From an uncultured Clostridia bacterium (GTDB taxonomy: Bacteria; Bacillota; Clostridia; Christensenellales; UBA1242), in contig CANQKH010000006.1 of assembly GCA_947624415.1 (NCBI GenBank), positions 13,910 to 77,909 on the forward strand: DNA of 64,000 nt, written 5' to 3'. Both the position numbers and the translations under genes were made by a program. Positions 22,638-63,979 of the stretch are shown here, piece by piece (the first letter of the stretch is position 1; the number at the start of each line of letters is the position of its first letter). Below the pieces are notes generated by a model that was not told the origin of the DNA, searched no databases, and worked only from the letters and a program-made list of their open reading frames with translations.

Positions 22638-22645
22638 GGGGATTT

Positions 22646-23429: not shown

Positions 23430-23431
23430 TT

Positions 23432-27399: not shown

Positions 27400-27428
27400 A
27401 AATAAGTTTTATTTAAGGAGAAAGTAAA

Positions 27429-28241: not shown

Positions 28242-28282
28242 ATTAAAAAATGGTGTTTAAAAGTAAAATTAACTAAAAAAGT

Positions 28283-29008: not shown

Positions 29009-29017
29009 AATTTCTCC

Positions 29018-30394: not shown

Positions 30395-30701
30395 AAATTA
30401 TATAACAAATTGATATTTAAAGCAAGTATATTATATAAAATATTATATTTTACCTTATAAATATATGTAAGCACAAAATCAATCTATACAAATAAAATTG
30501 ATTAAATTTTTTGATTTTTGCCGAAAATTGCAAAAAAATGAGTGTTTTTGCTTGTTTTTACACTAAAAAAATGTTAATTATCCTTTTTTTGCATTAAAAC
30601 AATGATAGAAAAGTTAAAAAACATCGCCAAAATTTTAACTCAATAAATTATTGACAATATAATCAAATTGTGATAAAATAAAAATGTGTTTAGGGGGATT
30701 T

Positions 30702-44451: not shown

Positions 44452-44694
44452 TGGCAAAAGCCAAGCGACATTAAAAATTTTTTTTAAATTTAATTTATTA
44501 AAGTTTGAAGTGTTTATCCGTTTGTGAAGGTTTCATTAAGCAAAAATTAAGTGAAAAACACGTTTAAATGGTGATTTTTTGCAAAAAAGCCTAAATCTTT
44601 TAAATTTATAGTTTTTTGCAACAAAAATATTAAAAGATATAAAAATTTGCTTAGCAAAATAAAATTTATTTGTTATAATAAAAAAGGAGGCAAT

Positions 44695-47838: not shown

Positions 47839-50800
47839 TTAAATATGTTGCCACTCAACATACAAGTCCTTATTTGAGTCTATAACTATAAGGCTCATGT
47901 CTGCATCGGCGTTCCCAAATGCTGAATTGTATAAGTTTTTGCAACCGCTTGTATTCCATGATGCACTGTTAAAACTATATCTTACTCCTATATATTTTCT
48001 TGATACATCAATTATAAGTGTTCGCTGTGTTATTGTTCCATTGAGGTCGGAAACCATATATAGTGTTGTGCCAATAATATAAGAGCCTTCAAGAACATAC
48101 ATTTCATCTAGTGTTCGGCGAGTTGATGTTTCATCATAACTGCTTATCCACCATGCAGGGTCAACCCAGTCGCAGTGGAAGGTTAGTTTATGATAAGACC
48201 TGCTTTGAGTTGTGTAAGTTGCAGAGAATGTAAGGTCATAATTTGGAACAATATTTGAAGTTATTTCCTTGCCGTCTGTCGTTTTGTATCCTTGGAAGTA
48301 GTAACCCACACGCTTAATAGGAATATTAGCCTCTCTTACAACCTCTTCAAAATCTTTTAGAGGTTGGAGTGTAAATCTTGTGCCTTGATAAAGCGATGAT
48401 GAGAAGGTTTTTGCCGTAAACTTACTATTTTCAAGCACATAATAGGTGTAAGTAATGGTGTATTTGTTTCTAATATAGAAAGTTAAATCACATTCTGGCA
48501 TAAGAATTGGTCGAGATGATTGAATTGTATATTCACTATCTGTATACCAACGTGTATTGCTGTAAATTGGGAATCCTGCAGGGAAAACGACAGGGGTGTT
48601 TGGTTCAAAGTAGGCAGAATATACTATGTCATTGTCATGGATTGTAATTTTGTAAAGTTTATCAATTGTTTTTAAGTATTCCCACTTTGCATAAACGGTG
48701 AGATTGTTGGATGGCATTAGTGATGGTGCAGGGGTTGAATAACTGCTGTCAACAAACCAGCCTTTAAACAAATACACGAGTGTCTTTCCATCTTGTTTGA
48801 GTAAAATTTGCTTATAATTTGGAAGGCAACTTGTAAGTTCAACCCTTTCAAAGGTATGAATTGTAAGTGTTTCGCCAGCCAAACCTTGCACAACTGTTAA
48901 AGTTTGAGCCTTTAAAGTTTGATAAGTTTGATAGGTTGCATATAGGTTTTCGCTTTCTTCTGGCACAATTTCAACTGTTACGCCATCTGCATCTCTCCAT
49001 CCAATAAACTCTTGCTTGTATAATATTCCATCAATTTCATATTCAATATATTTATCTACTATATCACTTCGCAACTGAGAACCTACAAGGGCATAATCAT
49101 TTGCAATAAGTTTGCCATTATTGTAATAATTAATTGTTCTGTAGCCCTCTTTGATTGTCCATTTACCATAGAGGGTTATATTTTTTGCAGGAATTATACC
49201 TTTTTTAAATTCACTTCCTTTTGCAAAGTTTTCACTTGTAAACCAGCCCTCAAAAGAGTAGAGTGTATAATCAATACCTGGATGATTTGTGCCTATAACT
49301 TTATCACTATATTTTGGCAATATAAATCTTTCATTAGGGCTTCCCGATATAGAAGGTTGGGATATGTCATCAAAGCCAGTTACAAATGTTATTGTATAAA
49401 GTCGTTCTCCAGTTTTTGTCCAATTGCCATTTTCTGCCGAATATTCAACGCTTTCCTTACCTCGTTTAAAGCCTTGCTCAAATTTATTGATTGTAGTGGC
49501 GTTAAAGTCAACACCATGAGAAACTGTCAAAGGATTTGCCTTTATGTAAAGGGTTGTTCCCCAAATTAGTGGCATATCAACATTGAGCGAGAGACCACCA
49601 ATTACATTTTGACCATTAATATTTTTTATGCTTGCACCAACCTCTAAATTTCCCATTTTGTCATCGCCTGTGAGTTCGTTGAGGTTGAGATTTAAAGTGT
49701 AAAATTCTGTGTTGTTTTGATAAGGGCAGGAGAAACTATTTATAATATTATTTAAGTTTGGAGTGTGATTGTCTGATGCTTCAAGTGATTTTTGTATCGC
49801 ACCAATTACATCGTCATTAAAGCCCGTTCCCCATTTTACATAATATAGTATGTCATCAAGCACGCTGTCTATGTGTGCCTTTATTGTCTTTTCATATTGG
49901 TCGCCATCGCCATTTGTCTCATGCCTATAGAAGTAGAAGTAGTTATCCTTGAAATAAATGTAAAGCATTCTGTCTGTAACTGAAAGGGGACTAAAGAGTC
50001 CGTTTGACCATGGAGTATCGTTGTTTAAGTTATATACAAGAAAATCAAGAACAGGAATAGCACCAATAGCAGCCTGCATCTGCAATTTTCCATCTGCAAG
50101 ACTTATTTGCATATTGACAGAAATATCCCAGTTTATATCTATAAATCCCACCCTCAATTTTATATTAATGTAACCTTTTATTTCAAAGGTTTTATTTGAG
50201 GAAATTGTATTTATTAAAGCCTCAATCAAATCACTTGACCCTGTCAAATCTATGTAATTTTTGTTTTGATTTGGTGCTGTTACCCCATTAAATTCATTAA
50301 AGTAAACATCAAAATCGAAATGTTCATTGTGCGTAACGCCGGTGTAGAAGTTTTTAAATGAAATTTGAGATATAGAGCCGTTGTTTGTGTAAACAACAAT
50401 TTCCATTTGAGTTGCTTTGGCGTTTGTTGAAAGGGTAATTCCGTCAATGACAATTGTAAGTGCATTATCTTCAACATCTAGTTTTTTAAGCATATTTACA
50501 TAAGAAGGTGATATTCCTTGTGTGTTTTGTGAAATTATATTTACAATTTGGAAAATGTCTATGTCTTGACCATTTAAAAGGTTTTCTGCCACTCCACCCA
50601 AACTTTCCATATTGAATAGTTTCAAAGCAACACTAATTATTTTTTCAAAGTCGCCCTGTGAAACTTTGAGGGCAAGGCTGTTATAGTCTACATAAATGTT
50701 TGACTGGTCGCCACTTGCACTTAAATTCAAATCAAATCCCTCAGTCTTCGTGTTTTTAACTCCACGAACTTGGGCGTTTGCATAAAATTTTATTTTGCCT

Positions 50801-53800
50801 GTTAAATCAAGTTGCAAAAGCATATTTTGTGCAGAGTAAATTTGGGTGTTCTTTTCATAAACGTTGGCATTTGCCGATATATTGTATTGCCTTGAATATA
50901 TATAATCCTTAATGGCTTTCACGAAAGGCAATAGTTCTTCAATGGAAGTGTATTTGCCTTTAATTTCAACTTTACCCTTTGTTGGAACAACTTTGCCCAC
51001 AATTTCAATGTCATTATATCTTACATTTAAGCCCGTCAGCCCATTTTCATTAAAGTTTATTTGTCCTGCCAGGTCGCCCAGTTTAAAATTCAAGGTGTTG
51101 TCTTCAAATCTAAAATTCGATGATGCGAGAATGTTTGCCAAATTGATTTTGTCAAGCCCAGAGCTTATTAGTGATAAAATGTCTATATTAAATTCATCTT
51201 TTAAGAATTGTGCCACATTGCCAATTTGGTCGAGATTGAATTGCAATTTTAAATTTTCTTTTTCAATATAAATTATATTGTCAATAAGTTTTATTCCAAG
51301 TTCAATTCCCTCAATTTGAGCATTTGCAGAAAGGGTTATTCCTGTTCCGTCAATGTTTAAATTGCCATTCAATGAAAATGAAGGATTTGTAGCCGTGAAG
51401 TCAATATAAAGTTGTTTGCTTTTTACAAGTGCAAGCACCGATTCAATTTTGCCCATCAAACTGCTTAATGGAAGATAATCGTCTTCATTAACCTCTGGCA
51501 AAACTTTTGGTGAAGAATTTATATTTAATGTAAATGCAACGTCTAAAACATATAATTTAACATCTTTAATCATGCTTTGGTTGAAGTTTATCTCAATAAG
51601 CACTCTGTCAAAGCCAAATGCCAATGTGTCATCATTAAATTTAAGTTTGCTGTTTGAAAGGATTGTATCAATTAGAGAACTGTCAAAATTTATGTTGTCA
51701 ATGACAAGGTTTAAAATTTCTGTCATGTTTGCATCAATTTTTTCAGTTATAAGTTTGAAAAGTCCTTCGAGTTCATCTGCTTTGCAAGAAATGTGCAAGT
51801 CGTTATAGTCAAAGAATAATGTGCGATTTTGCAATTTAAGGCTTGCCGCAACACTTCCACTTCTCAATTGTAAGAGGGCGGAAAGACTTTCATTTTCATG
51901 ATTCAAAACCCCTTCAATTTCAATGTCTTTATATGTTGCGTTGACTGTCAAATAATGCGTGTTGCGTGTTATATATTCTCTTAGCGATGTCGCCTTTTCT
52001 ATTAAGGTTGTAATAGGGGTGAAGTTAGATTTGTCAAATTGTGGCATTGCGTGGGCATCGTCTTGAATTTTTACATATCCATTAAAGTCTAAGCCTTCAA
52101 TTTGTGCAATGCGAGGATTATCACCCTCAAAGCCAACATTAAGATTTAAGTCCTTGTATGCAAACATAATATTGTTTTGCTCAATTTTAAGAACGGTTGC
52201 CTTTAAAATATTTTCCAAAATGCTGTTTAAGTCTAATTTGTTTGCAATATTTACAAGGTCTGGGGTCAGCCCGCTTTGTAAAACATTTACAGCATCATTG
52301 AAATCTTGCGCTAAGAATGAAACTCTTTCATCATTTACAGTAAGATAAACCATTTTGTCTAAAACTATAAGACTAAAAATATTGTTATCTCCAAAAACAT
52401 TAAAGTTTGCTTGAAGATTGCCATTACTGTAATTTACAAACCCTTCAATAGTGTTTAAAGGAGTTTTGCCCCCAATTTCTATGTAATATGTTTTTGATTT
52501 AATATAATCATAGATTTTTGTAATTTTGTTTAGAATTATATTTGCCGATAAATATTGTTCTTCATTTATTGGCGAGAAATCTATTTGGGTGGCGGAAGAG
52601 AGGTTTAATGATATTTGAGTTGTTTCCAAATTGATTTTAAGCCCAGTTAATATAGTGTCATAGTAAAGTGTAACTGTTTGATTATTTAAAAGATTTAAAG
52701 TCAAAGAGTCATCCCCAGCCACAATATTTTTGACAAAACTTTCATTCTTTTGAGGGTCAAGCCAGTTTGCGAGTGCGTCAATAATTGTTTGAGGGTTTAT
52801 TTCCACGCCAAGGCTTTTAAGCATTGAAGCAATATCATCTTTTGTTCCATAAAGATAAACGTCATCAAAATTTATATATGCTTTGCCATTCAAATAGTCA
52901 AGTGAAATTTCTTTGCCCAGTGCAAGTAAATCTAAATGCAAGCGTGAATTTTTAATGTCTGCTTTTAAAGAAATATCTCCCTTTATGCCGGCAATGGACA
53001 TTTCGCCCTCTGCCACAATGTAGTTTTGCTCTGTTGTGCTTATTGCCGCATCAATTGCAGGCAATGTTAGGGCAAGGTCGATATAACTGTCAATGCTGTT
53101 TGCAAGGTCGATGTTTCTTGCAGGAATTGAAGTTACATTTATTGTCAAGTCATCTGCCTTAAATGTAAGGCTTTCAAAATATCCTTCATTTACTACAAAT
53201 TCAATCTGGCCAATATTTTTTATTGTCAATGTGTAATTGTTGCCATTTTGGGTGAAGTTTTCAATTATGCTTAAATCCAAATCTGATAGCATTGAATTTT
53301 GGTCGCCTGGCAAAAGTTGAGAAAGGTTTAAATTTGAAAAGGCCTCTTTTGGCTTTGTAAGAAGGTCTGTTATAAACTCAACAGGCAAATTTGTGTTAAA
53401 ATGAGTGTTTAATATTTGCAAAGCCTCGGGTAGAGAGGATAAATCAAATTTAAAATTCAAGTTGCCAAGTTCAATATATAAAACTTTGTTTAACACAAGA
53501 AGTTTTGCATTTTGTCCCAAAAGTTCCATTTCATATTTGGCATTTTGTTCTTTCAAGTTTGCATAGAGATTGCCGGCAAAGTTTAATTCGCCCATGCCAA
53601 AGTCTATTTTTGCTCCAAACTTGTCATTTGTAATATAGTTTAGTGTTGAACTTAAAACCTCAAACATTGAACTTACATCCAAGTATTGCTCAGCAGGTGC
53701 TTTAACTTCAATGTTTGAAGGGTAGGACACGCCAACATCAAGTCCAACTGTTACGTTTTCAATTTGAGATTGAGGCATTGAAAGGGATAAAACATTGTAA

Positions 53801-54408
53801 TCGGTGTCGCAAACAACCTGCATTGCCCCAACAACAGGGACATTTATGTCAAGAATAATTACATCCTTTTCAACTCTCTCCTTTAAATCGGATAGCATTC
53901 CAAGTATGCTTTCCAAACTTAAATCTTCCACGTTAAGCCCGAGCGAAGATAGTGAAAAGCCGAGAGATGACAATATTTGCTCAATTGAACTTGAAAAGTT
54001 TTGGGTGTTAAAGGTAAATTTAGCGTTGCACATTTCAAGATAAATATTTCCGCCTGTAAAACAAAAGTCTATTGGCAGGCTGTCTTCATTTATCCTTAAT
54101 TCTACATTTCCTTGCAACTGCAAATTTTCATTTTGGTCATCTTTTTTAATGTCGGTGTCAAGGTTGACGGTAACTTCACTGTCTGTTTTGACGACAAGTG
54201 CAAGGTCAAGATGAATATTATTTGTTGCGGAAAGGTTGTTGTAAATTTTGCTTATTTGTGGTGCTATTGTTACTTTGTTTCCATTTGACTCTGAAAAAGG
54301 AATTGATGTCAGCAAAAATAAACTGCCGACAGCAGTGCCCAAGGTTATAATAAGATATACAAGACAGTATCCTAATATTTTTTTTACTTTATTTAACTTT
54401 TTTTTCAT
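47839..54408 (-). CDS. giant N-terminally anchored surface protein: ~7 internal ~170-190-aa modules plus C-terminal Listeria/Bacteroides-type (Flg_new) repeats
   Basis: ATG at 54408 has a GGGAG RBS (track start 54459 lacks one); TM ILGYCLVYLIITLGTAVGSLFLL; C-terminal units F-x-G-W...(L/V)-(Y/F)-(A/G)-x-W (FEGWFTSE..LYGKWT, FKGWFVDS..VYAKWE, FIGWRDAD..LYATYQ, FQGYKTTD..FSATYT) within about 47842-49410. Confidence 0.8.
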   Translation of the reverse strand: MKKKLNKVKKILGYCLVYLIITLGTAVGSLFLLTSIPFSESNGNKVTIAPQISKIYNNLSATNNIHLDLALVVKTDSEVTVNLDTDIKKDDQNENLQLQGNVELRINEDSLPIDFCFTGGNIYLEMCNAKFTFNTQNFSSSIEQILSSLGFSLSSLGLNVEDLSLESILGMLSDLKERVEKDVIILDINVPVVGAMQVVCDTDYNVLSLSMPQSQIENVTVGLDVGVSYPSNIEVKAPAEQYLDVSSMFEVLSSTLNYITNDKFGAKIDFGMGELNFAGNLYANLKEQNAKYEMELLGQNAKLLVLNKVLYIELGNLNFKFDLSSLPEALQILNTHFNTNLPVEFITDLLTKPKEAFSNLNLSQLLPGDQNSMLSDLDLSIIENFTQNGNNYTLTIKNIGQIEFVVNEGYFESLTFKADDLTINVTSIPARNIDLANSIDSYIDLALTLPAIDAAISTTEQNYIVAEGEMSIAGIKGDISLKADIKNSRLHLDLLALGKEISLDYLNGKAYINFDDVYLYGTKDDIASMLKSLGVEINPQTIIDALANWLDPQKNESFVKNIVAGDDSLTLNLLNNQTVTLYYDTILTGLKINLETTQISLNLSSATQIDFSPINEEQYLSANIILNKITKIYDYIKSKTYYIEIGGKTPLNTIEGFVNYSNGNLQANFNVFGDNNIFSLIVLDKMVYLTVNDERVSFLAQDFNDAVNVLQSGLTPDLVNIANKLDLNSILENILKATVLKIEQNNIMFAYKDLNLNVGFEGDNPRIAQIEGLDFNGYVKIQDDAHAMPQFDKSNFTPITTLIEKATSLREYITRNTHYLTVNATYKDIEIEGVLNHENESLSALLQLRSGSVAASLKLQNRTLFFDYNDLHISCKADELEGLFKLITEKIDANMTEILNLVIDNINFDSSLIDTILSNSKLKFNDDTLAFGFDRVLIEINFNQSMIKDVKLYVLDVAFTLNINSSPKVLPEVNEDDYLPLSSLMGKIESVLALVKSKQLYIDFTATNPSFSLNGNLNIDGTGITLSANAQIEGIELGIKLIDNIIYIEKENLKLQFNLDQIGNVAQFLKDEFNIDILSLISSGLDKINLANILASSNFRFEDNTLNFKLGDLAGQINFNENGLTGLNVRYNDIEIVGKVVPTKGKVEIKGKYTSIEELLPFVKAIKDYIYSRQYNISANANVYEKNTQIYSAQNMLLQLDLTGKIKFYANAQVRGVKNTKTEGFDLNLSASGDQSNIYVDYNSLALKVSQGDFEKIISVALKLFNMESLGGVAENLLNGQDIDIFQIVNIISQNTQGISPSYVNMLKKLDVEDNALTIVIDGITLSTNAKATQMEIVVYTNNGSISQISFKNFYTGVTHNEHFDFDVYFNEFNGVTAPNQNKNYIDLTGSSDLIEALINTISSNKTFEIKGYINIKLRVGFIDINWDISVNMQISLADGKLQMQAAIGAIPVLDFLVYNLNNDTPWSNGLFSPLSVTDRMLYIYFKDNYFYFYRHETNGDGDQYEKTIKAHIDSVLDDILYYVKWGTGFNDDVIGAIQKSLEASDNHTPNLNNIINSFSCPYQNNTEFYTLNLNLNELTGDDKMGNLEVGASIKNINGQNVIGGLSLNVDMPLIWGTTLYIKANPLTVSHGVDFNATTINKFEQGFKRGKESVEYSAENGNWTKTGERLYTITFVTGFDDISQPSISGSPNERFILPKYSDKVIGTNHPGIDYTLYSFEGWFTSENFAKGSEFKKGIIPAKNITLYGKWTIKEGYRTINYYNNGKLIANDYALVGSQLRSDIVDKYIEYEIDGILYKQEFIGWRDADGVTVEIVPEESENLYATYQTYQTLKAQTLTVVQGLAGETLTIHTFERVELTSCLPNYKQILLKQDGKTLVYLFKGWFVDSSYSTPAPSLMPSNNLTVYAKWEYLKTIDKLYKITIHDNDIVYSAYFEPNTPVVFPAGFPIYSNTRWYTDSEYTIQSSRPILMPECDLTFYIRNKYTITYTYYVLENSKFTAKTFSSSLYQGTRFTLQPLKDFEEVVREANIPIKRVGYYFQGYKTTDGKEITSNIVPNYDLTFSATYTTQSRSYHKLTFHCDWVDPAWWISSYDETSTRRTLDEMYVLEGSYIIGTTLYMVSDLNGTITQRTLIIDVSRKYIGVRYSFNSASWNTSGCKNLYNSAFGNADADMSLIVIDSNKDLYVEWQHI

Positions 54409-54777
54409 TCTTACTCCCAAAGTGAATTGTAATTGTTTGAGGTTATATTTTTTCATCAATGAATATTTTTTTCATTGAATGAATTACTTCTTCCTTGCGT
54501 TGCAATAAAAATTGCGGAGACATTTTACCTGCCTGTGAAAGGGCAAAACAAAGTTTGTGCTTGAAACCTTTTCACCTATGCAATGTAAAACTTATATTAA
54601 TTAATTCTATTATATTATAAATAAAATTAATTTTCAAGTGGAAATAGTAAAATTTTTGCCAAGAAAGGGCTTTCTTTAACGAAAAAAATCCAAAATAGCA
54701 CAATTTTGGTTAAAAATATATAAAAATATAAAAAATTTACCAAAAAATTAAATCAAAATAATTTTAAAATTTGCAAA

Positions 54778-54824: not shown

Positions 54825-55295
54825 CTAGTTTAATTCTGGCTCTGGCTCTCTTTCTTCCTTGCGTTTACTAATCTTGTTTGAAATTGTCTCTGTTATGCTT
54901 TCAGGTTTTGCAATTTCGACGAATGCGCCTGCAGTCCCGGCACACAAAGTCAAAGTTGGAACTAATGCCCAATACAAATCATTTTGGTTTTTCTGTGCCT
55001 GAGTAAATTTGTCGCCATAAATCTCTTGTGCTGAGTTTTCTTTCAAAGTGTTTACTGCGTGTGTGTAAGAACCTTGGTCGATAACTCCCTTGTCATAAAG
55101 ACTATTTAAATTGTCAAGGTCGTCTTGAATGCTTTCTATGACTTGGTCGTCATTTATCATAGTTTTATAGTCTTCCCAAGCCTTTGCGTCGCTTGCTTTT
55201 AGAGAACAAATCCCAATAACTGATGACGCTGCAAGGCCAAGAAAAAATGTAATTTCTGCTGCTTTTACTATACCTTTTATAATGGGATTTTTCAT
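54825..55295 (-). CDS. two-TM membrane protein, paralog family member A
   Basis: 156 aa from ATG 55295 (GAGGTG RBS); TM-helical segment (IQDDLDNLNSLYDKGVIDQGSY..VNTLKEN)-TM-charged tail. Confidence 0.55.
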   Translation of the reverse strand: MKNPIIKGIVKAAEITFFLGLAASSVIGICSLKASDAKAWEDYKTMINDDQVIESIQDDLDNLNSLYDKGVIDQGSYTHAVNTLKENSAQEIYGDKFTQAQKNQNDLYWALVPTLTLCAGTAGAFVEIAKPESITETISNKISKRKEEREPEPELN

Positions 55296-55386
55296 ATTTT
55301 CACCTCTTTTCATATATTATTATACGCAAATACTTAAATTTGTCAAGAGGGGATGAGTGATTTTATTTTCTTTAAGCCCTTCTTAA

Positions 55387-55412
55387 ACAAAAAAACAGCA
55401 TTTCTGCTGTTT
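55387..55412 (-). terminator. intrinsic terminator
   Basis: ACAGCA-TTTC-TGCTGT with T-run on minus strand. Confidence 0.55.
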
Positions 55413-55418
55413 CATTAT

Positions 55419-55925
55419 TTAAACATTTTCTGGTTCTGGGGTTTCTTCCTTCTTTGCTTTTTGGGACTTTTGATATTTTTTTAATTCCCTACGCTGTTCG
55501 AGTTCATCTGAAAGTAAACTTAAAAAACTATCTTTGCCGTCATGCACGAGAAAATCATATAAAATTGTAGTAGCACCAAGGGCAAGAGTAGGAGTAGGAA
55601 CAAAAGCCAAGAAACGTTTGTTTATATTCTTCTTTGCAGTTTCATATTTTCCGCCAAAGACTTCCTTTGCTGCATTTTCCTTTAAAGTGTTTACTTGCTG
55701 TCTGTAAGCATCATAGTCAACACTTCCTTCATTGAATTTGTTATTTAAAACTGATAAATCATCTTGAATATATTCGATAACTTCAGGCGAAGAAAGCATA
55801 TCGCTAACATCCTTTTTTGCACTATTTCCGGCATTTATAGCGGCGGCAATTCCGGCGATTGAGCCTGCTACAACTCCAGCCATAGTAACAACTTCAATTG
55901 TTTTAAGAATATGATATTTTGACAT
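55419..55925 (-). CDS. two-TM membrane protein, paralog family member B
   Basis: 168 aa from ATG 55925 (AAGGAG RBS); IQDDLSVLNNKFNEGSVDYDAYRQQVNTLKENAAKEVFG identical to member C. Confidence 0.6.
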   Translation of the reverse strand: MSKYHILKTIEVVTMAGVVAGSIAGIAAAINAGNSAKKDVSDMLSSPEVIEYIQDDLSVLNNKFNEGSVDYDAYRQQVNTLKENAAKEVFGGKYETAKKNINKRFLAFVPTPTLALGATTILYDFLVHDGKDSFLSLLSDELEQRRELKKYQKSQKAKKEETPEPENV

Positions 55926-55947
55926 AATTTTTCTCCTTCTTACTTTA

Positions 55948-55976
55948 ATTATATCATTTATAATATTTACTGTCAA
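55948..55976 (-). promoter_or_regulatory. perfect consensus promoter of member B
   Basis: Minus strand TTGACA (55976-55971), 17 nt, TATAAT (55953-55948). Confidence 0.65.
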
Positions 55977-56148
55977 TAGGATTTTTTTTGATTTTAAAGC
56001 ACATTACAACCTTTTGCGAAGGCAAAAATTTGTATAAGAATGAATAATAAAATGACCTTTATTTAAAGAAATCGCAGAGATTTTAATATTTTTAAAATAT
56101 GCTTTTTTATTTAAAAAAATTATGATATAATGCTTAAAAGGAGTTGCT

Positions 56149-56484
56149 ATGGATACAAGAAATTTTATTGGGAAAAAAGTATATGTTGAAATAGACAGAC
56201 CACTTGGGAGCAGACATCCACAATATGGAAATATTTATCCTTTAAATTATGGCTTTGTTCCAAACACCATTTCGGGAGATGGTGCAGAAATTGATGCATA
56301 TATTTTGGGGGAATTTGAACCCCTTGAAGATTTTGAGGGAGTTGTCATTGCAGTAATAAGAAGAACAAATGACAATGATGATAAACTTGTTGTTGTGCGA
56401 GAGGGCAAAACATATAACGAAGACCAAATCAAGGCTTTGACAGAGTTTCAAGAGCGTTACTTCAATTCTAAGATTATTTTTTAA
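56149..56484 (+). CDS. truncated family I inorganic pyrophosphatase-like protein
   Basis: YPLNYGFVPNT and GDGAEIDAYILG resemble the PPase YPxNYGFIPxT / DGDPLDVLVL motifs, but the second Asp is replaced; only 111 aa. Confidence 0.5.
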   Translation: MDTRNFIGKKVYVEIDRPLGSRHPQYGNIYPLNYGFVPNTISGDGAEIDAYILGEFEPLEDFEGVVIAVIRRTNDNDDKLVVVREGKTYNEDQIKALTEFQERYFNSKIIF

Positions 56485-56574
56485 AACCCTTTATTTATCA
56501 AAAAAATGCACCTCCTAAGTTGTCTAACTTTTGGGGTGCAGTTCATTTTTGGGGTGCACTTTAATTTTTTTTCT

Positions 56575-57144
56575 TTATGCTTTCTCAATTTCTGTAGATT
56601 TAATGTCTGTAGTTTCAGTTTCTTTTGGCTCTTCTTTAGACTCTTTTTCCTTCTTTTCTTTTAAGGCTTTTTGTATTTCTTTTATTCTTTTTTCTTCATC
56701 TTTTATTCTTTTACGCTCTGCCAATGCTGCACTAAACTCGCTCAAGAAAGATTCATCGCCTTTATTAAAAATAACATCAGATAAAAGAACCCCGCCTGCG
56801 ACGGGCACGAAAGGAAAGGGAACAATCATAAAGAGACCTTTGTTTGAATCCTTCTTTGCAGTTTCGTATTTTTCGCCAAAGACTTCCTTTGCTGCATTTT
56901 CCTTTAAAGTGTTTACTTGCTGTCTGTAAGCATCATAGTCAACACTTCCTTCATTGAATTTGTTATTTAAAACTGATAAATCATCTTGAATATACTCGTT
57001 AACTTCAGGTGAAGAAAGCATATTGCTAACATCCTTTTCTGCATTGCTTCCCACTTTTCCAGCGACTACCATTCCGGCAATCCCGCCTGCCATTATTCCG
57101 GCTGCAGTAACCATTTCTATTGTTTTAAGTATTCCTTTTTTCAT
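56575..57144 (-). CDS. two-TM membrane protein, paralog family member C (long K/E-rich tail)
   Basis: 189 aa from ATG 57144 (AAGGAG RBS). Confidence 0.6.
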   Translation of the reverse strand: MKKGILKTIEMVTAAGIMAGGIAGMVVAGKVGSNAEKDVSNMLSSPEVNEYIQDDLSVLNNKFNEGSVDYDAYRQQVNTLKENAAKEVFGEKYETAKKDSNKGLFMIVPFPFVPVAGGVLLSDVIFNKGDESFLSEFSAALAERKRIKDEEKRIKEIQKALKEKKEKESKEEPKETETTDIKSTEIEKA

Positions 57145-57163
57145 GGTTTTCTCCTTTATTGAA

Positions 57164-57192
57164 ATTATATCATTAATTAAATTTGTTGTCAA
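57164..57192 (-). promoter_or_regulatory. perfect consensus promoter of member C
   Basis: Minus strand TTGACA (57192-57187), 17 nt, TATAAT (57169-57164). Confidence 0.65.
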
Positions 57193-57261: not shown

Positions 57262-57696
57262 TTATCTTCTCCCAATAAGTTTATCAATTGAGCCACCAAG
57301 ATTTGAGGCAATATAGCAAATAATGTTAAGCCTAGGTTTTGCCCCTGCCTTCCAATGTCTTATAACACTTTCATCAAAATTACTGTTTTTCATAAATTTA
57401 TAATTTGTCAAATTATTTTTATTTAAAAGAGATTGATAGTTATATAAAAACTTTGACATATCATAATAACAAGTTTTATATTTGCCCTCCTCTTTTTCTG
57501 TGCTAATTCCAAAAAGATAATCAAGTGAACAATTAAAATATAGTGCAAGTTTAAGTGCCAGGTCTATTGTTGGCGTTGAACCTCTTAAATATCGACTTAA
57601 CTGCATTGCATTGACTTTGCTTTCTATTGATATTTGGCGTAAAGATAACCCCTTTTCATCAATTAAATCTTTGAGAATTTCTACAAAACTTTCCAT
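57262..57696 (-). CDS. XRE-family HTH transcriptional regulator (tandem HTH-like halves)
   Basis: GLSLRQISIESKVNAMQLSRYLRGSTPTIDLALKLALYFNCSLDYLFG; divergent from the 57949 gene. Confidence 0.75.
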   Translation of the reverse strand: MESFVEILKDLIDEKGLSLRQISIESKVNAMQLSRYLRGSTPTIDLALKLALYFNCSLDYLFGISTEKEEGKYKTCYYDMSKFLYNYQSLLNKNNLTNYKFMKNSNFDESVIRHWKAGAKPRLNIICYIASNLGGSIDKLIGRR

Positions 57697-57948
57697 TTTT
57701 CCTTCTTTAAAAACATCTTTTAAATTACTTTTATTTTATAGGAAATTGTGTTACAATACTTGTGTATAACAGATATGCCTAGTGTGTGTTATAAAAATTT
57801 TTATATTCAAAGGGGATATTAAAAAAAGGCAAAAAATTTTTTGCAAAGGGCGACAATGTTTAAAAAACTCAAAAAAATTTTTATTATGCTTGTCGAAATC
57901 CATTTTTTGGGACATCGTGTATGATATAAATATAACAAAGGAGGAGTT

Positions 57949-59718
57949 ATGGAAATTGATTTTTTGAAAGGGGAATATGTGCTTGTGGACAAACAGCATT
58001 TACCTTTCACCGTTAAAGGGAAAAATGAACTTATTTTATTTAAACAAAAAGAAGGTTGCGACTATTATGCTTTTGAAAGTGGGCAGTTAAGTGATGAAGA
58101 GGGCAAATTTTTTAAATTTTGTATGCGTGCCGTCCATCCTGTATTTTATCAATTTAAATATGGTGATGATTTCTTCAGCGAGGCAAAGGAGTTTCATGAA
58201 GATAACGAGGCATACAGGCTTTCAGAGGGACTGGAATCGCAAAGTTATGATTATGATTTTAAAAACTTTGAGTTAAATGCAGAAAAAGAATTTCAAGAGG
58301 GTCTGGGAGAAAACAGACTATATCCTGCCATAGTTGTAAAAAAGGGTGGCATAAGATGGAAACAATATAATGACTTTATGAGAGATAGCCTTGCTGTGGG
58401 CGATAACAAAATGATTTTGGAGGAACTTAAACGACACAGCATTGCATTATTTTGTTTGGAGCAGGACGGGACTCTTACACTTTTGCGTCATTTTACACAA
58501 GATTTAAGTTATTATATTTTGCGTGGGAAGGATGAAATTGGAAATTTAATTGAATTAAATTATGGCTCAATAAAAATTCTACTAGATTGCGGAAAAGAGT
58601 TGAATGAAAATTTAGAGGAGGACAGCGAACTTGAAAAAATGGTGCTGTCGAAAAATTATGATGGGGTTTTAATTAGTCATTATCATATTGACCATGCCGG
58701 GCTTGTCGGCAAAGTTAAATGTCCGATATATATGGGAAAGGGATGTCTCAAAGTTTTAAATGCTCAAAATAATTACAAGAATGAGCCACTTCTAAAAAAT
58801 ATAAACTGCTTTGAGCCAAACGAGGAGTTTGCAATAAAGAAGAATGGCTTTGAAATTAAAGTCAAGCCAATTCTTGTTGACCATTCGGCATATGACAGTT
58901 ATATGTTTTTGATACGTGGTGGCGGAAAGACATTGCTCTATACAGGTGATTTTCGTGCACATGGAAGAAAAAACTTTTCCCAAACCCTTAAAAATTTGCC
59001 AAACAAGGTGGATGTTTTGATTTGCGAAGCCACCAATATGTTCTGCCCAAATGAAAATATGCTTGAAGAGGAAGTTGAGATGAAGGCTACTCAATTAATG
59101 AAGGACTACAAACACGTCTTTGTCTTCCAAGCAGGGACAAATATTGACAGGCTTGTTTCTTTTTACAAGGCAAGTATAAAAAACAAAAAGGTGTTTTTAA
59201 TGGACACGTATGTGTCGGGGATTTGCGAAAACTTGCCAAATATTCCAAATCCAAAAACATTTAAAGATGTTTATTGCTTCTGGGATGTGCCAAAACGATT
59301 TGGCAGAGATGGTGTAAGGAAATATGAAATTGACTGGCGACAGTTTCACAAATTAAACAAGGGACTTGGCTATTGCGATGTGGGAAGCCCAAAAAATGAA
59401 AATTTTGGCGACCTGTCAAACTTCACTATGATTGTTAGGCCATCAATGCTAAATTATTTGAAAAGGGCAGACGAAGACAAATTGTCAAGATTTAAAACTT
59501 CAATTTTCGATAATTCAATTTTAATTTACTCACTTTGGCAGGGCTACAAAGAAAAAGATGATGTTAAAAGTTTTCTTGAAGAAATGGAAAAAATGGGAGT
59601 TAAAATTGTTGACCTTCACACAAGTGGGCACTGCGACAAACAAACAATTGATAGACTTAAACAAAAAGTCAATCCAAGCATTATTGAATATGTCCACTTT
59701 ATAAAAAAGGCATTATAA
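57949..59718 (+). CDS. beta-CASP-type MBL-fold nuclease with ~200-aa N-terminal domain of unknown function
   Basis: LLDCG, ISHYHIDHAG (HxHxDH), VDHS, YTGDF, CEAT, late DLHTSGH; AAGGAGG RBS. Confidence 0.65.
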   Translation: MEIDFLKGEYVLVDKQHLPFTVKGKNELILFKQKEGCDYYAFESGQLSDEEGKFFKFCMRAVHPVFYQFKYGDDFFSEAKEFHEDNEAYRLSEGLESQSYDYDFKNFELNAEKEFQEGLGENRLYPAIVVKKGGIRWKQYNDFMRDSLAVGDNKMILEELKRHSIALFCLEQDGTLTLLRHFTQDLSYYILRGKDEIGNLIELNYGSIKILLDCGKELNENLEEDSELEKMVLSKNYDGVLISHYHIDHAGLVGKVKCPIYMGKGCLKVLNAQNNYKNEPLLKNINCFEPNEEFAIKKNGFEIKVKPILVDHSAYDSYMFLIRGGGKTLLYTGDFRAHGRKNFSQTLKNLPNKVDVLICEATNMFCPNENMLEEEVEMKATQLMKDYKHVFVFQAGTNIDRLVSFYKASIKNKKVFLMDTYVSGICENLPNIPNPKTFKDVYCFWDVPKRFGRDGVRKYEIDWRQFHKLNKGLGYCDVGSPKNENFGDLSNFTMIVRPSMLNYLKRADEDKLSRFKTSIFDNSILIYSLWQGYKEKDDVKSFLEEMEKMGVKIVDLHTSGHCDKQTIDRLKQKVNPSIIEYVHFIKKAL

Positions 59719-59798
59719 TTTATCAAAATTTAAAATTGTTTGCAAAATCCTTTTGCTTATAATTCAAATGTGCTAATATATAATAAAGGAGAAAGTCT

Positions 59799-60788
59799 AT
59801 GATTAATGGCGAGAAGAAAGGCTCAATACTTTACGTCCTTGAAATATTAAAAAGGTATACTGACAAAAATCACTCGCTTACATACTCACAAATCCTTGAA
59901 AAACTCGAAAACGAATATGACTTGGCTATTGACAGAAAAACTGTTGCTCGCGATATTGATATTTTGTCTTCATTTGGATATGAGATAATAAAGAGAGGAA
60001 ATTATGGTGTTTACTTAGGTTTTCGAGACTTTGAGGAAGGGCAGTTGAGATTTTTGGTTGATGCCATATATTCCTCAAGGTCAATGCCAACTCAATATGC
60101 ACGCGAACTTGTCAAGCAACTCACAAAAGACCACAGCATATATGACAGGAGAAAATTTCAACATCTTGAAAAAATTGATGATGATGTAAGGTCTGACAGC
60201 CGTCAATTATTTCTTACAATTGAGTTGCTAGAGGATGCTATAAGCGGGGGCAAGAAAGTTGAATTTCAATATAACGCATATGGCACAAACAAAAAATTGA
60301 AGCCTAAAAAAGATGGAAAGATTTACAAAATCAATCCCTATTATATGGTAAACACGCATGGCAACTATTATCTTGTTTGCAATTATGACAAATATGACAA
60401 TCTTGGCAATTACAAAATTGAATTTATTTCCGATTTAAAGATTTTGGATGAACCCGTCAAGCCACTTTCTTCCCTGCCTGGACAAGAAAATTTTTCAATA
60501 AAAGATTACATAAAAGAGCATATTTATATGAATGCCGGCGAGTCGGTTGAGGCAAAAATTAAGATTGATGACGAGGGAAAAGTTAGTGATATTATAAGTT
60601 GGTTTGGCAATAGGGTTGGAATATTTTTTGAAAATGACAAATTGTATGCAAGCATACGTGTCAATGAAAATTCCCTTATTTATTGGGCACTTCAATATGG
60701 ACAATCGGTTGAGGTCGTCGAGCCTGCATCGACCCGTGAAAAAATTTTAAATATTTTAGATAAAATGGTTGAAAAATACAAAAATTAG
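59799..60788 (+). CDS. WYL-domain transcriptional regulator (wHTH-WYL-C-terminal extension)
   Basis: N-terminal wHTH ILYVLEILKRYTD...TYSQILEKLE...IDRKTVARDIDIL; WYL-type core YKINPYYMVNTHGNYYLVCNYDKYDNLGNYKIEFI. Confidence 0.7.
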   Translation: MINGEKKGSILYVLEILKRYTDKNHSLTYSQILEKLENEYDLAIDRKTVARDIDILSSFGYEIIKRGNYGVYLGFRDFEEGQLRFLVDAIYSSRSMPTQYARELVKQLTKDHSIYDRRKFQHLEKIDDDVRSDSRQLFLTIELLEDAISGGKKVEFQYNAYGTNKKLKPKKDGKIYKINPYYMVNTHGNYYLVCNYDKYDNLGNYKIEFISDLKILDEPVKPLSSLPGQENFSIKDYIKEHIYMNAGESVEAKIKIDDEGKVSDIISWFGNRVGIFFENDKLYASIRVNENSLIYWALQYGQSVEVVEPASTREKILNILDKMVEKYKN

Positions 60789-60798
60789 GAGAAAAATT

Positions 60799-60993
60799 AT
60801 GAAAATTAAGCAAAAAATCAAGAAATTTTTGAATATTCAAACAAAATTACCAAAAAAAATTGAAATTAATGACAATCAAAATGCCAATTATATAAACAAG
60901 CCACGCGAAGAGTTTGACAAAGTTGAAAAGAGAAAAATTTACTTGCCAAATGAAAATGTTGACGATTTAGACACATTTGAAAATGATTTATAA
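60799..60993 (+). CDS. small hypothetical protein
   Basis: 64 aa from ATG 60799 (AGGAG RBS); basic N-terminus, acidic C-terminus. Confidence 0.4.
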   Translation: MKIKQKIKKFLNIQTKLPKKIEINDNQNANYINKPREEFDKVEKRKIYLPNENVDDLDTFENDL

Positions 60994-61004
60994 GGAGGAA
61001 AATT

Positions 61005-61700
61005 ATGAAATTAAAAAGTAGAAAAGAATATTATGATATTGACCCTTTGCTCCCTGAGGTTTTGGAGTTTGCAGTAGTCCAACAGATATTGTCAATAACC
61101 TCAATCCAACGTGCATTTCAAATAGGTTATCCACGTGCTGCAAAACTTATGGACCGCTTAGTGGAAGAGGGACTTGTTGACAGTGCTAATGATGGCCCTA
61201 AAAAAGTTTTGGTGTCCAAAAAAGAATATTGCCGTGCATACAGAATTTTGCCATCAAGGCTCAAAGAAGTTGAAAACCGCGTCTCAACTTCGCCAAAGCC
61301 TAGAAAGGGAACTGTTAGACTTGAAAAACTAAAACTTGACAAAGTTAAATTTTATGACGAGTTTGACAAAGTAGTTGATGAAGAGTGTCAAAAAGAATTA
61401 AACAAAATCCTTCTTGACATCTTATGCCAAGAGGCACTTGTCAATCTTTCAAGTGATTTCCTTCTTGATTTTTTAAGGAAAAAGAAATATAAAGTTAAAT
61501 ATTTAAGGCTTAACCTTGATGATATAAGTGGAATTTTTAGGGCAGTTGAAAAAATCAATTCTCCTGTTATTTATGTTATTGATGTTGCAACAGGCAACGT
61601 AATGGAAATATTGGAACAAACTAATTTGCTTGTAATAGAGGGAGCGATTGTTATGAGAAAAAATGACGATGAACAATCGAGGCTTACAATCTTTTATTAA
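61005..61700 (+). CDS. protein with N-terminal FtsK-gamma-type winged helix, unknown C-terminal domain
   Basis: DPLLPEVLEFAVVQQILSITSIQRAFQIGYPRAAKLMDRLVEEGLVDSANDGPKKVLVS closely follows the FtsK gamma pattern (DPL..A..fV......S.S.lQR...IGY.RAArl.d.lE..GiV......k.R.VL). Confidence 0.65.
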   Translation: MKLKSRKEYYDIDPLLPEVLEFAVVQQILSITSIQRAFQIGYPRAAKLMDRLVEEGLVDSANDGPKKVLVSKKEYCRAYRILPSRLKEVENRVSTSPKPRKGTVRLEKLKLDKVKFYDEFDKVVDEECQKELNKILLDILCQEALVNLSSDFLLDFLRKKKYKVKYLRLNLDDISGIFRAVEKINSPVIYVIDVATGNVMEILEQTNLLVIEGAIVMRKNDDEQSRLTIFY

Positions 61701-61806
61701 TTTTCAAAAGTCTAATTTATCAATCTTCTTTTCATTTGGTCAATTTGTATAAACAAAAAAGGGGCAAACCATTTGAAAAAAGATGTAATTTAATTAAGGA
61801 GACGTT

Positions 61807-62112
61807 ATGAAAGATAACATACCTTTTTCAAAATTTTATGAATACTATAAACAAGAAGAGGATACAAAATTTCAATTCTCAAAGGAAAAAACAAACAGAC
61901 AGACACAGTGGCTTAATGCCATGGCGGATGTTACTTGGGAAGACCTAGAAAGCCTAAAACCCGATGAAATGATTAAAATTCCAATAGCATGGATTTATGA
62001 TTGGACTCATGTAACTGCGAATTATATCTTACAAGACCAAGTCCAGTCCCTTTATAATAGATATCACTTGCCAATTTATTCAATAAAAGAATATTTGTCC
62101 TTTTTTAAGTGA
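61807..62112 (+). CDS. hypothetical protein
   Basis: 101-aa ORF with AAGGAG RBS. Confidence 0.4.
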   Translation: MKDNIPFSKFYEYYKQEEDTKFQFSKEKTNRQTQWLNAMADVTWEDLESLKPDEMIKIPIAWIYDWTHVTANYILQDQVQSLYNRYHLPIYSIKEYLSFFK

Positions 62113-62187
62113 TAGGAAATTTTGTTTCTTTAAAAATGGACAAGCGGGCGGAAAAAGTTGTGATTTAGAAAAAAAAAAGGAGTGAAT

Positions 62188-62826
62188 ATGGAAGGAGAAT
62201 TTGACGAAAAACTCTGCTTGTGTATTGGAAATTACATTTGGCAGGGAAAGGTTGAGGGGATTTTGCTTGCTGATGGAAAGTTTGTTGAAGATTTGGACAA
62301 TTTCCCCGGCCTTTTGATGGGCGAAAAATTTAAGGATAAATCTATTGACGAAAAGAAAGAATTTTTGCACCAATGTGTTATTGGAAACACCAGCAGAACT
62401 TTTATTTTAAACGTTTTGGCCTTAAAACACCTTTCACGAATTCTTAACAGTGAAGCACATGGCCAACTCGATAACTTTTGGCAATCTCGCCTTGATAAAT
62501 TTACACTTTTTGGGCGTGGCGATGAAAATAAATTATTTGATAAAATCAATTTGGGGCAAACGATTGGGCTTGTCGAAACTCTTTTGAGGGAGGATGACGA
62601 TTTTATAAATTTATTTGAAAAGGCCTTTTGCAAGGAGGGCAGTCTCAATAGAGAAAATATTGTAAAGGTGGTTACTTCAATATTGACTTGCAGTCCCACG
62701 CTTGAATTTGCAGTTACTTTATTTATTTTTAAATATATTTCAAATGCCCTAGAAAACAGCAAGGCAGAATTTATTGACGATGAAGAGTTTGTCAAGATGA
62801 TAGAAAAAATTTCAAAAATTTTGTAA
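62188..62826 (+). CDS. hypothetical protein
   Basis: 212 aa from ATG 62188 (AGGAG RBS preceded by an A10 run). Confidence 0.4.
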   Translation: MEGEFDEKLCLCIGNYIWQGKVEGILLADGKFVEDLDNFPGLLMGEKFKDKSIDEKKEFLHQCVIGNTSRTFILNVLALKHLSRILNSEAHGQLDNFWQSRLDKFTLFGRGDENKLFDKINLGQTIGLVETLLREDDDFINLFEKAFCKEGSLNRENIVKVVTSILTCSPTLEFAVTLFIFKYISNALENSKAEFIDDEEFVKMIEKISKIL

Positions 62827-62932
62827 AATTAAAGAAAATTACTAAAAAAAACAAAAAAAAGAGTAAAAAAACGCAAAAAAAAGGAAATTTTTGAAGAAAG
62901 TGAAGGCGTAGACAAAAATTTATGGAGGAAGC

Positions 62933-63529
62933 ATGGAAGAAAATTTAACAATAAAAATTGGAGAAATCATAAACGGCAAAGCAGTTGATCTAGATTTAAA
63001 TGCAATCAAAAATTTGCTTGTTGTAGGAAAAGTTGGAAGGGGCAAAACAATTTTTCTAAAACAATTTTTATCAAATTTTAAAAACACAAATGCTAATGTC
63101 TTGGTCTTTGACCCAAAGGGTGTTGAATATAATGATGAAACAAATTGCAAAGTAATAACTACAATGGAGGAGGCAAAAGACACTTTGCAATCTTTACAGC
63201 AAAAAATTAAAGATGGCAATTTGGACACCACAATTTTTGTCGTCGACGAAAGTGCCGATTATCTTTTGGAAGATGGCAAAACCAAAAGAATTATGTGCAA
63301 AATTTTTGAAAATGGGTGTAAAGGGGGAATTTTGCCTGTTTTTGCGACATATAATTTTAAATTTTTACCCAAAAAACTTTTAAAAAGCGTAAATTGTATG
63401 GTTGCTTTTGATTATCAAGATAACACTTTGCTAAAAAATAACACCATGTCAGAACTAGAAAAATATGAAAGCATTTTTTATAAAAAGGGAGTTTTGCTCA
63501 CCCAATTAAAACCTGTCAAAATGTATTAA
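62933..63529 (+). CDS. minimal FtsK/SpoIIIE-like P-loop ATPase (198 aa)
   Basis: VDLDLNAIKNLLVVGKVGRGKT (Walker A in FtsK-like context), VLVFDPKGVEY, Walker B IFVVDESADYL, ILPVFATYN. Confidence 0.6.
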   Translation: MEENLTIKIGEIINGKAVDLDLNAIKNLLVVGKVGRGKTIFLKQFLSNFKNTNANVLVFDPKGVEYNDETNCKVITTMEEAKDTLQSLQQKIKDGNLDTTIFVVDESADYLLEDGKTKRIMCKIFENGCKGGILPVFATYNFKFLPKKLLKSVNCMVAFDYQDNTLLKNNTMSELEKYESIFYKKGVLLTQLKPVKMY

Positions 63530-63568
63530 TTCCCCTCTTGCCAACTAATAATAAATTTGGAGGAAAAT

Positions 63569-63979
63569 ATGAAAACAATAAAAGCGGGTTGTTTCTTAGT
63601 AAACAAAGAAAATAAAACGGTTGCAATAATTTATAGGACAAAACAGCAAGACTACTCTTTCCCTAAAGGTCATCTCGAAGAAGGTGAGGATATAGAGACG
63701 TGTGCTTTAAGAGAAACGGCAGAAGAAACAAAAAGAGAAGGCGAAATCGTAAAAGAATTTGAGCCATATATTGAAAGTTATACAACGCCAAGTGGCGAGG
63801 AGTGTCTTTGCTATATGTTTATAGCCTTAGACAAGGGGAAAAGTGATAACGACAGCACCGACACCCATGAAGTTCATTGGATTCCTTTTGAGGAAGTTGA
63901 AGATAAATTATCTTATCCAAGTCTTAAAAGCACATGGAACAGCGTTAAAGATAATGTTTTAAAAGTTTTGGAAAATTAA
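63569..63979 (+). CDS. Nudix hydrolase
   Basis: Nudix box GHLEEGEDIETCALRETAEETKREG; GGAGG before the ATG at 63569. Confidence 0.75.
   Translation: MKTIKAGCFLVNKENKTVAIIYRTKQQDYSFPKGHLEEGEDIETCALRETAEETKREGEIVKEFEPYIESYTTPSGEECLCYMFIALDKGKSDNDSTDTHEVHWIPFEEVEDKLSYPSLKSTWNSVKDNVLKVLEN

Follow-up and report, generated by a model that had tools for sequence, protein, structure and literature searches.

Which of the genes at the 3' end of a 64,000-nucleotide stretch of DNA from an uncultured Clostridia bacterium (assembly GCA_947624415.1, contig CANQKH010000006.1, positions 13,910 to 77,909; referred to here as the window) belong together, and what might they do? Positions 57262-63979 hold nine open reading frames (ORFs), eight on the plus strand and one, for a regulator of the XRE family, on the minus strand, and the original prediction took all nine for a single candidate system of an undescribed kind. 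The nine ORFs are all present, and the domains assigned to them (XRE, metallo-β-lactamase (MBL), WYL, FtsK-gamma, FtsK-like ATPase and NUDIX) are upheld by Pfam. As one system, however, the nine genes do not hold together: the conserved unit consists of four genes, encoding a WYL/WCX regulator, a protein of ~65 amino acids (aa), a protein with an FtsK gamma domain and a minimal FtsK-type ATPase, and in relatives the XRE, MBL and Nudix genes never stand beside it. Because only these four genes recur, and because two further genes for proteins of 101 and 212 aa are inserted in the window, the nine-gene set is a mosaic, and the locus is best read as a mosaic accessory island. The members of the four-gene cassette are as follows.

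59799-60788, plus strand: regulator of 329 aa with a helix-turn-helix (HTH)-WYL-WCX architecture, first gene of the cassette (Pfam WYL 2.7e-8, WCX 4.3e-7 and HTH_11; PADLOC WYL 2e-23).
60799-60993, plus strand: cassette protein of 64 aa with a basic N-terminus and an acidic C-terminal tail; no family match.
61005-61700, plus strand: gamma protein of 231 aa, composed of an FtsK-gamma winged helix and a C-terminal domain of ~135 aa (Pfam FtsK_gamma 4.4e-16, residues 12-70).
62933-63529, plus strand: minimal FtsK-beta-type P-loop ATPase of 198 aa (mini-ATPase), last gene of the cassette (Pfam DUF87 4.4e-8, FtsK_SpoIIIE 2.1e-6).

As the original prediction had proposed, the WYL, gamma and mini-ATPase genes co-occur in other genomes. 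Together with the gene for the small protein (67 aa) they are contiguous in the relative loci L005, L007, L011, L012, L013 and L037, and across the whole block five contigs show 95-97% DNA identity. The DNA homology stops ~60-100 base pairs (bp) past the stop codon of the ATPase gene, where at least three different downstream genes follow, none of them encoding a Nudix protein. Between the window and its relatives protein identity is 79-82% for the WYL regulator, the best-conserved member (64% in L017), 53-61% for the gamma protein, 55% for the ATPase and 34-42% for the small protein; the last is kept in L013, L008, L007, L011 and L037 and absent in L010, and in relatives there is a 4-bp overlap between its gene and the gamma gene. 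Partial versions also occur: L010 has a WYL gene and a gamma gene followed by a homologue of the 212-aa protein, and in L008, L009 and L036 genes for M60-type peptidases adjoin a gamma gene that may or may not be accompanied by the small gene. The context differs in every lineage, so these are not housekeeping genes in a fixed core-genome setting.

The family is very small. The mini-ATPase is represented by 4 protein clusters and the gamma protein by 7 among 5.8 billion, and one further clear relative, P0012, emerged when 1.8 billion representatives were searched exhaustively with a HMMER profile. At the level of species genomes, relatives are found in 2 of ~185,000, both of them metagenome-assembled genomes of uncultured Clostridia from rabbit gut, and a scan of metagenomes returned a single match, at 24% identity. 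The gamma protein, the ATPase and the replication protein (Rep) of L017 have no relatives in IMG/VR, and INPHARED yielded only generic FtsK or gamma matches, which led us to discard a viral origin. A plasmid origin was discarded likewise: PLSDB has no match to the ATPase, and queries with P0013 and with the ATPase of L031 gave only generic FtsK proteins at 25-37% identity. Two faecal contigs considered as relatives (L015 and L016) proved to be high in guanine plus cytosine (GC) and to carry full-length FtsK-like genes.

What kind of machine does the cassette encode? The Walker A (GxVGxGKT) and Walker B (DES) motifs of the mini-ATPase are invariant in relatives at 55% identity, and its AlphaFold2 (AF2) model (predicted local distance difference test (pLDDT) score 80) finds in Foldseek, as its best matches, TcpA of pCW3 and the beta domain of the FtsK motor (TMq 0.77-0.79); among viral models it is phage FtsK-like proteins that match. 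Pfam detects no FtsK_alpha domain, and the chain begins at the beta domain. In none of the ATPase, gamma and small proteins does the maximal 19-residue hydropathy reach 1.6; a membrane anchor is lacking, and no membrane segment is found in any protein of the cluster. Rather than forming the C-terminus of the ATPase chain, the gamma domain is located on a separate 231-aa chain encoded upstream of it. It matches FtsK gamma in the PDB (3.3e-10), and AF2 models residues 1-93 with confidence (winged helix ~10-75), with pLDDT below 50 beyond. The gamma protein is presumed to be the DNA-recognition subunit. Its C-terminal ~135 aa do not match the neighbouring unassigned proteins (hhalign probability <1%), and the idea that they stand in for the FtsK alpha domain was rejected on the same measure (<1% against FtsK proteins).

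In the relatives P0012 and P0161 the same ATPase (~40% identity) is fused to a C-terminal gamma domain on one chain, and for this reason the gamma and ATPase genes are regarded as functionally linked. This fusion and the fold match to the FtsK motor and TcpA bear out the earlier proposal that the two FtsK-like genes are a split FtsK, and the pair is best read as a soluble, split 'mini-FtsK'. One motif sets it apart: at window positions 63350-63362 (ATPase residues ~139-142) the mini-ATPase clade has ATYN, and P0012 has STYN, where FtsK has ATQR. The arginine of the FtsK ATQR motif is the arginine finger. The substitution could reflect an altered or partner-dependent hydrolysis mechanism. Two other small FtsK relatives, P0163 and P0167, are housekeeping genes of reduced genomes and do not belong to the same theme. 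A split of the housekeeping FtsK itself was also observed, in a reduced genome (L035, GCA_964646325.1, 8001-10042), where an alpha-beta gene of 546 aa and a gamma gene of 129 aa lie between rpoC and recA.

As for the regulator that heads the cassette, WYL regulators of the BrxR family co-localize with defence systems (PMC9122601), and others, such as DriD, sense single-stranded DNA (PMC9186387). On Clostridia plasmids, homologues of the window WYL protein have as neighbours McrBC, an MBL, an AAA ATPase together with an ImmA/IrrE protease, and various nucleases, in line with what has been published on BrxR-type regulators in defence islands (PMC9122601); because the nucleases next door are so varied, a WYL gene nearby says little for any particular partnership. 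The one palindrome noted, in the gap between the MBL and WYL genes (59740-59756), is an unlikely WYL operator, being neither conserved in relatives nor enriched.

The surroundings of the relatives show the cassette to be accessory cargo on rolling-circle (partly inovirus-like) elements and on chromosomal islands, in a slot that also holds defence systems. In L013 it is preceded by genes for a G2P-type rolling-circle Rep, a Bro-N protein and a 109-aa protein, and followed by a gene for a 330-aa protein, a 1359-aa enzyme with ResIII and Eco57I domains and, at the end of the region, a PcfJ-like gene. The 330-aa protein was compared with the DUF4391 protein of L017 and with the product of the downstream gene of L005 and is unrelated to both. 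In L017 the genes encode, in order, a Zot-like ATPase (2e-18 and 33.7% identity to an annotated inovirus Zot), a Rep that is 70% identical to that of L013, the fused mini-FtsK, a 137-aa protein, the WYL regulator, a product with a weak, below-cutoff match to DUF4391 and a PemK-like toxin. L017 is a candidate for an inovirus-like element of Gram-positive bacteria that carries defence or toxin genes as cargo. Its Zot-like ATPase and G2P-type Rep (1491-3625) are encoded in a contig of 31% GC, apparently from a gut Firmicute. In L037 a serine-recombinase-like gene adjoins the cassette.

The slot itself is best illustrated by L019 (MT835493.1), a human-faecal contig that shares the Rep and PcfJ genes at 52-60% identity. 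Between them it encodes a PAPS reductase, a DUF4007 protein, a 1202-aa protein, a cysteine desulfurase, a PLD helicase and an SMC-like ATPase, which together look like a complete phosphorothioation-type defence system in the place of the cassette. Because L019 has this backbone and no cassette, the cassette is dispensable for it. The record is deposited as 'Bacteriophage sp.'; the region in question (14962-31021) has the look of a mobile element of the rolling-circle kind, loaded with defence cargo, and not of a tailed phage.

A more distant case is L031, a chromosomal contig of 142 kb, which repeats independently the pattern of WYL regulator, nuclease, separate gamma protein and FtsK ATPase. 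One strand (2033-8996) encodes an 80-aa membrane protein, a WYL/WCX regulator without sequence similarity to that of the window, a 193-aa protein (candidate GNAT-like from reading the sequence), GmrSD, an 83-aa gamma protein, an ABC-type ATPase, a 159-aa HExxH protein and an FtsK-only ATPase (331 aa, 24% identity). Possibly the cluster constitutes an undescribed system of its own. The nuclease beside the cassette or its counterparts thus varies, from MBL in the window to ResIII/Eco57I in L013, GmrSD in L031 and PemK in L017; the sequence available for L005 and L037 contains none.

Because the cassette moves between mobile elements and islands beside changing nucleases, it may be an undescribed DNA-handling module of the conflict between bacteria and mobile DNA. 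The most likely reading, to which our analysis gives a probability of roughly 0.45, is a role in conflict between the host and mobile DNA, or between elements, of the 'HerA/FtsK capture' type; capture systems that combine HerA/FtsK, an HTH protein and a nuclease are a published concept (PMC10853773). The gamma protein would recognize a short DNA motif and load or direct the ATPase ring, as in FtsK and SpoIIIE, and the ring would pump double-stranded DNA. A WYL dimer would hold the operon off until a nucleic-acid or nucleotide ligand arrives, as described for BrxR, CapW and DriD (PMC9122601, PMC9186387). Once produced, the mini-FtsK would seize particular DNA, foreign or replicating, and pass it to the adjacent nuclease, in the window the MBL, with the XRE and Nudix proteins as local add-ons. 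More tentatively, the cassette might be an undescribed system for immunity or inter-element competition, in which a WYL-gated, sequence-reading motor feeds DNA to swappable nucleases (MBL, GmrSD, a type ISP-like restriction enzyme or PemK).

Several observations weigh against a role in conflict. Motor activity may be altered, given ATYN in place of ATQR, the alpha domain is lacking, and the C-terminal domain of the gamma protein gave neither a confident model nor a match. No nuclease is a constant partner, and the window alone has the MBL. The gamma gene is found without ATPase and WYL genes in L008, L009 and L036, and without the ATPase gene in L010, which keeps the WYL gene; this points either to decay of the cassette or to an independent role for the gamma protein. 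The rolling-circle Rep genes next door fit an element's own DNA handling equally well. The independent contexts behind the argument from neighbourhood are few, because this tiny family is limited to a handful of uncultured Clostridia of the gut. Finally, in PADLOC-DB 2.0 no named defence system matches the components of the cluster at full length: the ATPase gives partial matches to mad8 (3e-10, covering part of the model), HerA and PtuA, the other matches are generic WYL models and the Nudix candidate PDC-S07, and the MBL, 101-aa and 212-aa proteins match nothing. No paper was found that links an FtsK gamma domain with WYL, and the statement of the original prediction that the combination corresponds to no named system stands.

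How, then, do the remaining genes of the window relate to the cassette? They are the following.

57262-57696, minus strand: XRE-family HTH regulator of 144 aa (Pfam HTH_3 1.2e-10; PHROG transcriptional regulator 1.9e-19).
57697-57948, no strand: divergent intergenic region of 252 bp between the XRE and MBL genes, presumed promoter/operator, with promoter-like hexamers at 57859-57887.
57949-59718, plus strand: beta-CASP MBL nuclease of 589 aa (Pfam Lactamase_B_2 1.8e-12, from residue ~203).
61807-62112, plus strand: lineage-specific protein of 101 aa, absent from all relatives; no match in Pfam, PADLOC, PHROGs or NCBIfam.
62188-62826, plus strand: protein of 212 aa; no family match and no PDB sequence match.
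63569-63979, plus strand: Nudix hydrolase of 136 aa (Pfam NUDIX 3.3e-18; PADLOC candidate PDC-S07 1.9e-8).

In every relative read, homologues of the XRE, MBL and Nudix genes are absent near the cassette. Of the NCBIfam families, RstR comes closest to the XRE regulator, still below cutoff. The 101- and 212-aa genes, which had been counted as members of the system, lie between the gamma and ATPase genes only in the window lineage, and in five relatives the gamma and ATPase genes are adjacent; a homologue of the 212-aa protein (57-61% identity) is encoded 3' of the gamma gene in L010 and appears to be an occasional gamma partner. The 64-, 101- and 212-aa proteins find no family in Pfam, PHROGs or NCBIfam, in agreement with their earlier classification as unassigned.

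The 589-aa protein is, by its sequence, a beta-CASP member, with the motifs HxHxDH (HYHIDH) at residue 244, DHS at 311 and the beta-CASP motif C, SGH, at 559; it matches EF2904 (4.6e-10), RNase J (1.6e-9) and CPSF73 (2.3e-5) among PDB sequences, and RNase J and aCPSF1 partially in NCBIfam. The original prediction had noted an N-terminus of ~200 aa resembling nothing familiar, and residues 1-190 indeed have no match in Pfam, PHROGs, PADLOC, NCBIfam, the PDB or the plasmid homologues, alignments with which begin at residues ~186-198 (one at 149). The C-terminal 400 aa place the protein in a widespread family of stand-alone, plasmid-borne MBLs. That the N-terminus might be a fused neighbour was rejected, as these 190 aa find no match in the plasmid loci, and the unannotated neighbours of the plasmid MBLs have no Pfam domain. 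On pCY186 of Butyrivibrio an MBL homologue (28% identity) is encoded two genes from a WYL protein (34% identical to that of the window, E 6e-60), and on a Prevotella plasmid another MBL gene stands beside a WYL gene; the pairing is not seen in four proteobacterial MBL examples, and pCY186 has no homologue of the gamma protein or the mini-ATPase. The window MBL is a candidate local effector.

The plus-strand run shares one strand, as had been stated, and is less uniformly tight than had been supposed: from the MBL to the Nudix gene the gaps are 80, 10, 11, 106, 75, 106 and 39 bp, none of them containing a convincing intrinsic terminator. The run ends at the Nudix gene. The suggestion that it might continue past the window did not survive, since in metagenome contigs identical to the window a spacer of ~300 bp follows and then a convergent transglutaminase-like gene (>338 aa). 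The 57 kb 5' of the cluster hold ordinary chromosomal genes (among them those for a flippase, a thioesterase, DapA, DapB, an exonuclease III-like protein, TrkH and an orthologue of Ro60). The host DNA is low in GC (~32%); the cluster genes have the base composition of the housekeeping genes of the window, and no shift was found at the cluster. Neither a tRNA, an Rfam family, an integrase, a Rep nor flanking att-like repeats were found in the window, no ORF of which matches the Rep, Zot, BroN or PcfJ of L013 and L017, and no conjugation genes lie near the locus. The concern that the locus could be part of a recognizable integrative and conjugative element or prophage is therefore partly justified in the relatives, with their Rep, Zot-like, PcfJ and serine recombinase genes, and not in the window.

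Several other genes near the cluster deserve mention. A 2206-aa surface protein with Listeria-Bacteroides repeats is encoded 3 kb upstream of it (47839-54459, minus strand), and in four other lineages the gamma gene or the cassette likewise abuts the gene for a giant protein that is secreted or on the surface (M60 peptidase, Flg_new, Big_2), at the following positions.

L008, 5550-10124: giant secreted/surface protein.
L010, 3026-4771: giant secreted/surface protein.
L036, 1303-2901: giant secreted/surface protein.
L031, 73-1392: giant secreted/surface protein.

This adjacency may merely mark variable genome regions. Between the surface-protein and XRE genes of the window (54825-57192, minus strand) are three small paralogues of 162, 185 and 205 aa, which share a 300-nucleotide repeat at 85% identity and have a predicted hydrophobic N-terminal segment, judged by reading their sequences; amid them lies a short inorganic-pyrophosphatase-like ORF of 111 aa (56149-56484, plus strand). 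A second MBL-fold protein (279 aa, 44647-45486, plus strand), unrelated to that of the cluster, is encoded amid housekeeping genes and matches the anti-Pycsar Apyc1 family weakly, below cutoff. The Ro60 orthologue (45907-47430, plus strand) has TROVE (4.9e-31) and Ro60 vWA domains, and no Y-RNA-like or other Rfam family occurs anywhere in the window at gathering thresholds.

With the neighbourhood in view, the alternatives to a role in conflict can be weighed. The cassette might simply serve the mobile element that carries it, the gamma protein binding a site in cis and the ATPase pumping or segregating the double-stranded DNA of the element (for partition, dimer handling or transfer from cell to cell), in the manner of TraB of Streptomyces plasmids or TcpA of pCW3; the WYL protein would be an induction switch answering DNA damage, as DriD does, and the copy in the window a stranded remnant. 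We consider this unlikely, and still the most credible of the alternatives, because the cassette or its fused form lies directly 3' of a G2P-type rolling-circle Rep in L013 and L017, because of the Zot-like inovirus ATPase of L017, the PcfJ of L013 and the serine recombinase of L037, and because TcpA is the best structural match of the ATPase; the sensing of single-stranded DNA by WYL regulators such as DriD (PMC9186387) would suit it as well. It is harder to reconcile with the Rep/PcfJ backbone of L019, which does without the cassette, with the copies in the window, L008, L010 and L031, near which there are no Rep, Zot or conjugation genes, with the failure to see a repeated 8-mer or a clt-like site, and with the blank results from IMG/VR and PLSDB. 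TcpA and TraB are, moreover, membrane proteins, and the cassette ATPase lacks a membrane anchor. A rolling-circle or filamentous element without an integrase could also use the gamma protein as an Xer activation factor, like isolated FtsK gamma or XafT of TLC-phi, to turn on the XerD of its host and integrate or excise at a dif-like site. Xer activators encoded by elements are known (PMC6744903, PMC9226527), no other member of the cassette persists as well as the gamma gene, which occurs without the ATPase, and no integrase is seen in L013 or in L017, with its inovirus hallmarks. Even so, this is the least probable of the explanations considered here: dif-like sites are not above chance in the loci or in the window (4 observed vs 7.6 expected), the loci are incomplete, so that an integrase may be encoded beyond their ends, a serine recombinase is present in L037, and activation of XerD would explain neither the ATPase nor the 135-aa C-terminal domain.

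The view closest to the original prediction, that all nine genes form one WYL-controlled operon for DNA sensing and processing, with the MBL and Nudix proteins as obligate effectors and the XRE protein as a second regulator, can appeal to the common strand and the lack of convincing terminators, to the neighbouring MBL and WYL homologues on pCY186 and the Prevotella plasmid, and to the match of the Nudix protein to PDC-S07. We regard it as improbable, since no relative of the cassette has XRE, MBL or Nudix genes nearby, homology between relatives stops right after the ATPase gene, pCY186 lacks the gamma and mini-ATPase genes, and the pairing of MBL with WYL is not specific. Equally improbable, in our view, is the opposite extreme, namely that there is no joint function and that decaying remnants of mobile elements and unrelated accessory genes have been juxtaposed by chance in a variable chromosomal region. 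The partial versions (L008, L036 and L010), the mosaic contexts and the very narrow distribution are what this would lead one to expect, but all ORFs are intact, the catalytic motifs are invariant at 55% identity, the order of the cassette is kept at 53-82% protein identity, and both the fusion in P0012 and the reappearance of the pattern in L031 speak for selection acting on the combination.

If the cassette does act in conflicts through a mini-FtsK, it would be the smallest known FtsK-type machine, with a beta-only ATPase and the gamma domain on a separate subunit, and would indicate the minimum needed for directed DNA pumping. It would also give a concrete and testable example of what has so far been a purely computational idea, the use of FtsK/HerA pumps with swappable nucleases in conflicts, and would widen the range of modules under WYL regulators. 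The loci further draw attention to rolling-circle, partly inovirus-like elements with defence cargo in gut Clostridia. The very narrow distribution and the uncultured hosts set practical limits to their study.

How does the cassette compare with known systems? It shares with FtsK and SpoIIIE, including soluble SftA-type proteins, a RecA-like beta core with Walker A and B motifs and a DNA-binding gamma winged helix. It differs in lacking the membrane anchor, the linker and the alpha domain, in having ATYN for ATQR, in placing gamma and beta on separate chains with the gene order reversed and an extra 135-aa domain on the gamma protein, and in its context, which is accessory or mobile rather than that of cell division. 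With TcpA (pCW3) and TraB-type proteins the similarity is the structural match, limited to the ATPase core, and the Rep and PcfJ neighbourhood in relatives; the mini-ATPase is, however, about half their size and without membrane segments, no other conjugation genes are seen, and the cassette is dispensable for the L019 backbone. The hallmarks of an inovirus or rolling-circle integrative element (Rep, Zot and recombinase) are confined to L013, L017 and L037 and do not extend to the window. The window MBL resembles beta-CASP proteins of the RNase J, CPSF73 and EF2904 type in sequence and in its MBL and beta-CASP motifs, and is distinguished by its unique N-terminal ~190 aa and by belonging to a stand-alone plasmid-borne family with no link to the cassette outside the window. 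BrxR, CapW and DriD have the same HTH-WYL-WCX architecture and a similar position at the head of accessory or defence gene sets (PMC9122601), but the cassette regulator adjoins a split mini-FtsK rather than a bacteriophage exclusion (BREX) system, a cyclic-oligonucleotide-based antiphage signalling system (CBASS) or a damage regulon. The nearest parallel is offered by the HerA/FtsK capture systems (DndH-like; PMC10853773, PMC12839542), which likewise combine an FtsK/HerA-type ATPase with a fast-evolving HTH or winged-HTH part and occur in mobile or defence neighbourhoods next to nucleases. Here the cassette departs from them in having no DndFGH, Orc/Cdc6 partner, D5 helicase or BREX-related parts and no constant nuclease, in the integral WYL regulator and ~65-aa protein, and in an ATPase reduced to 198 aa. 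It corresponds to no described architecture, and it fits the loose concept of HerA/FtsK capture.

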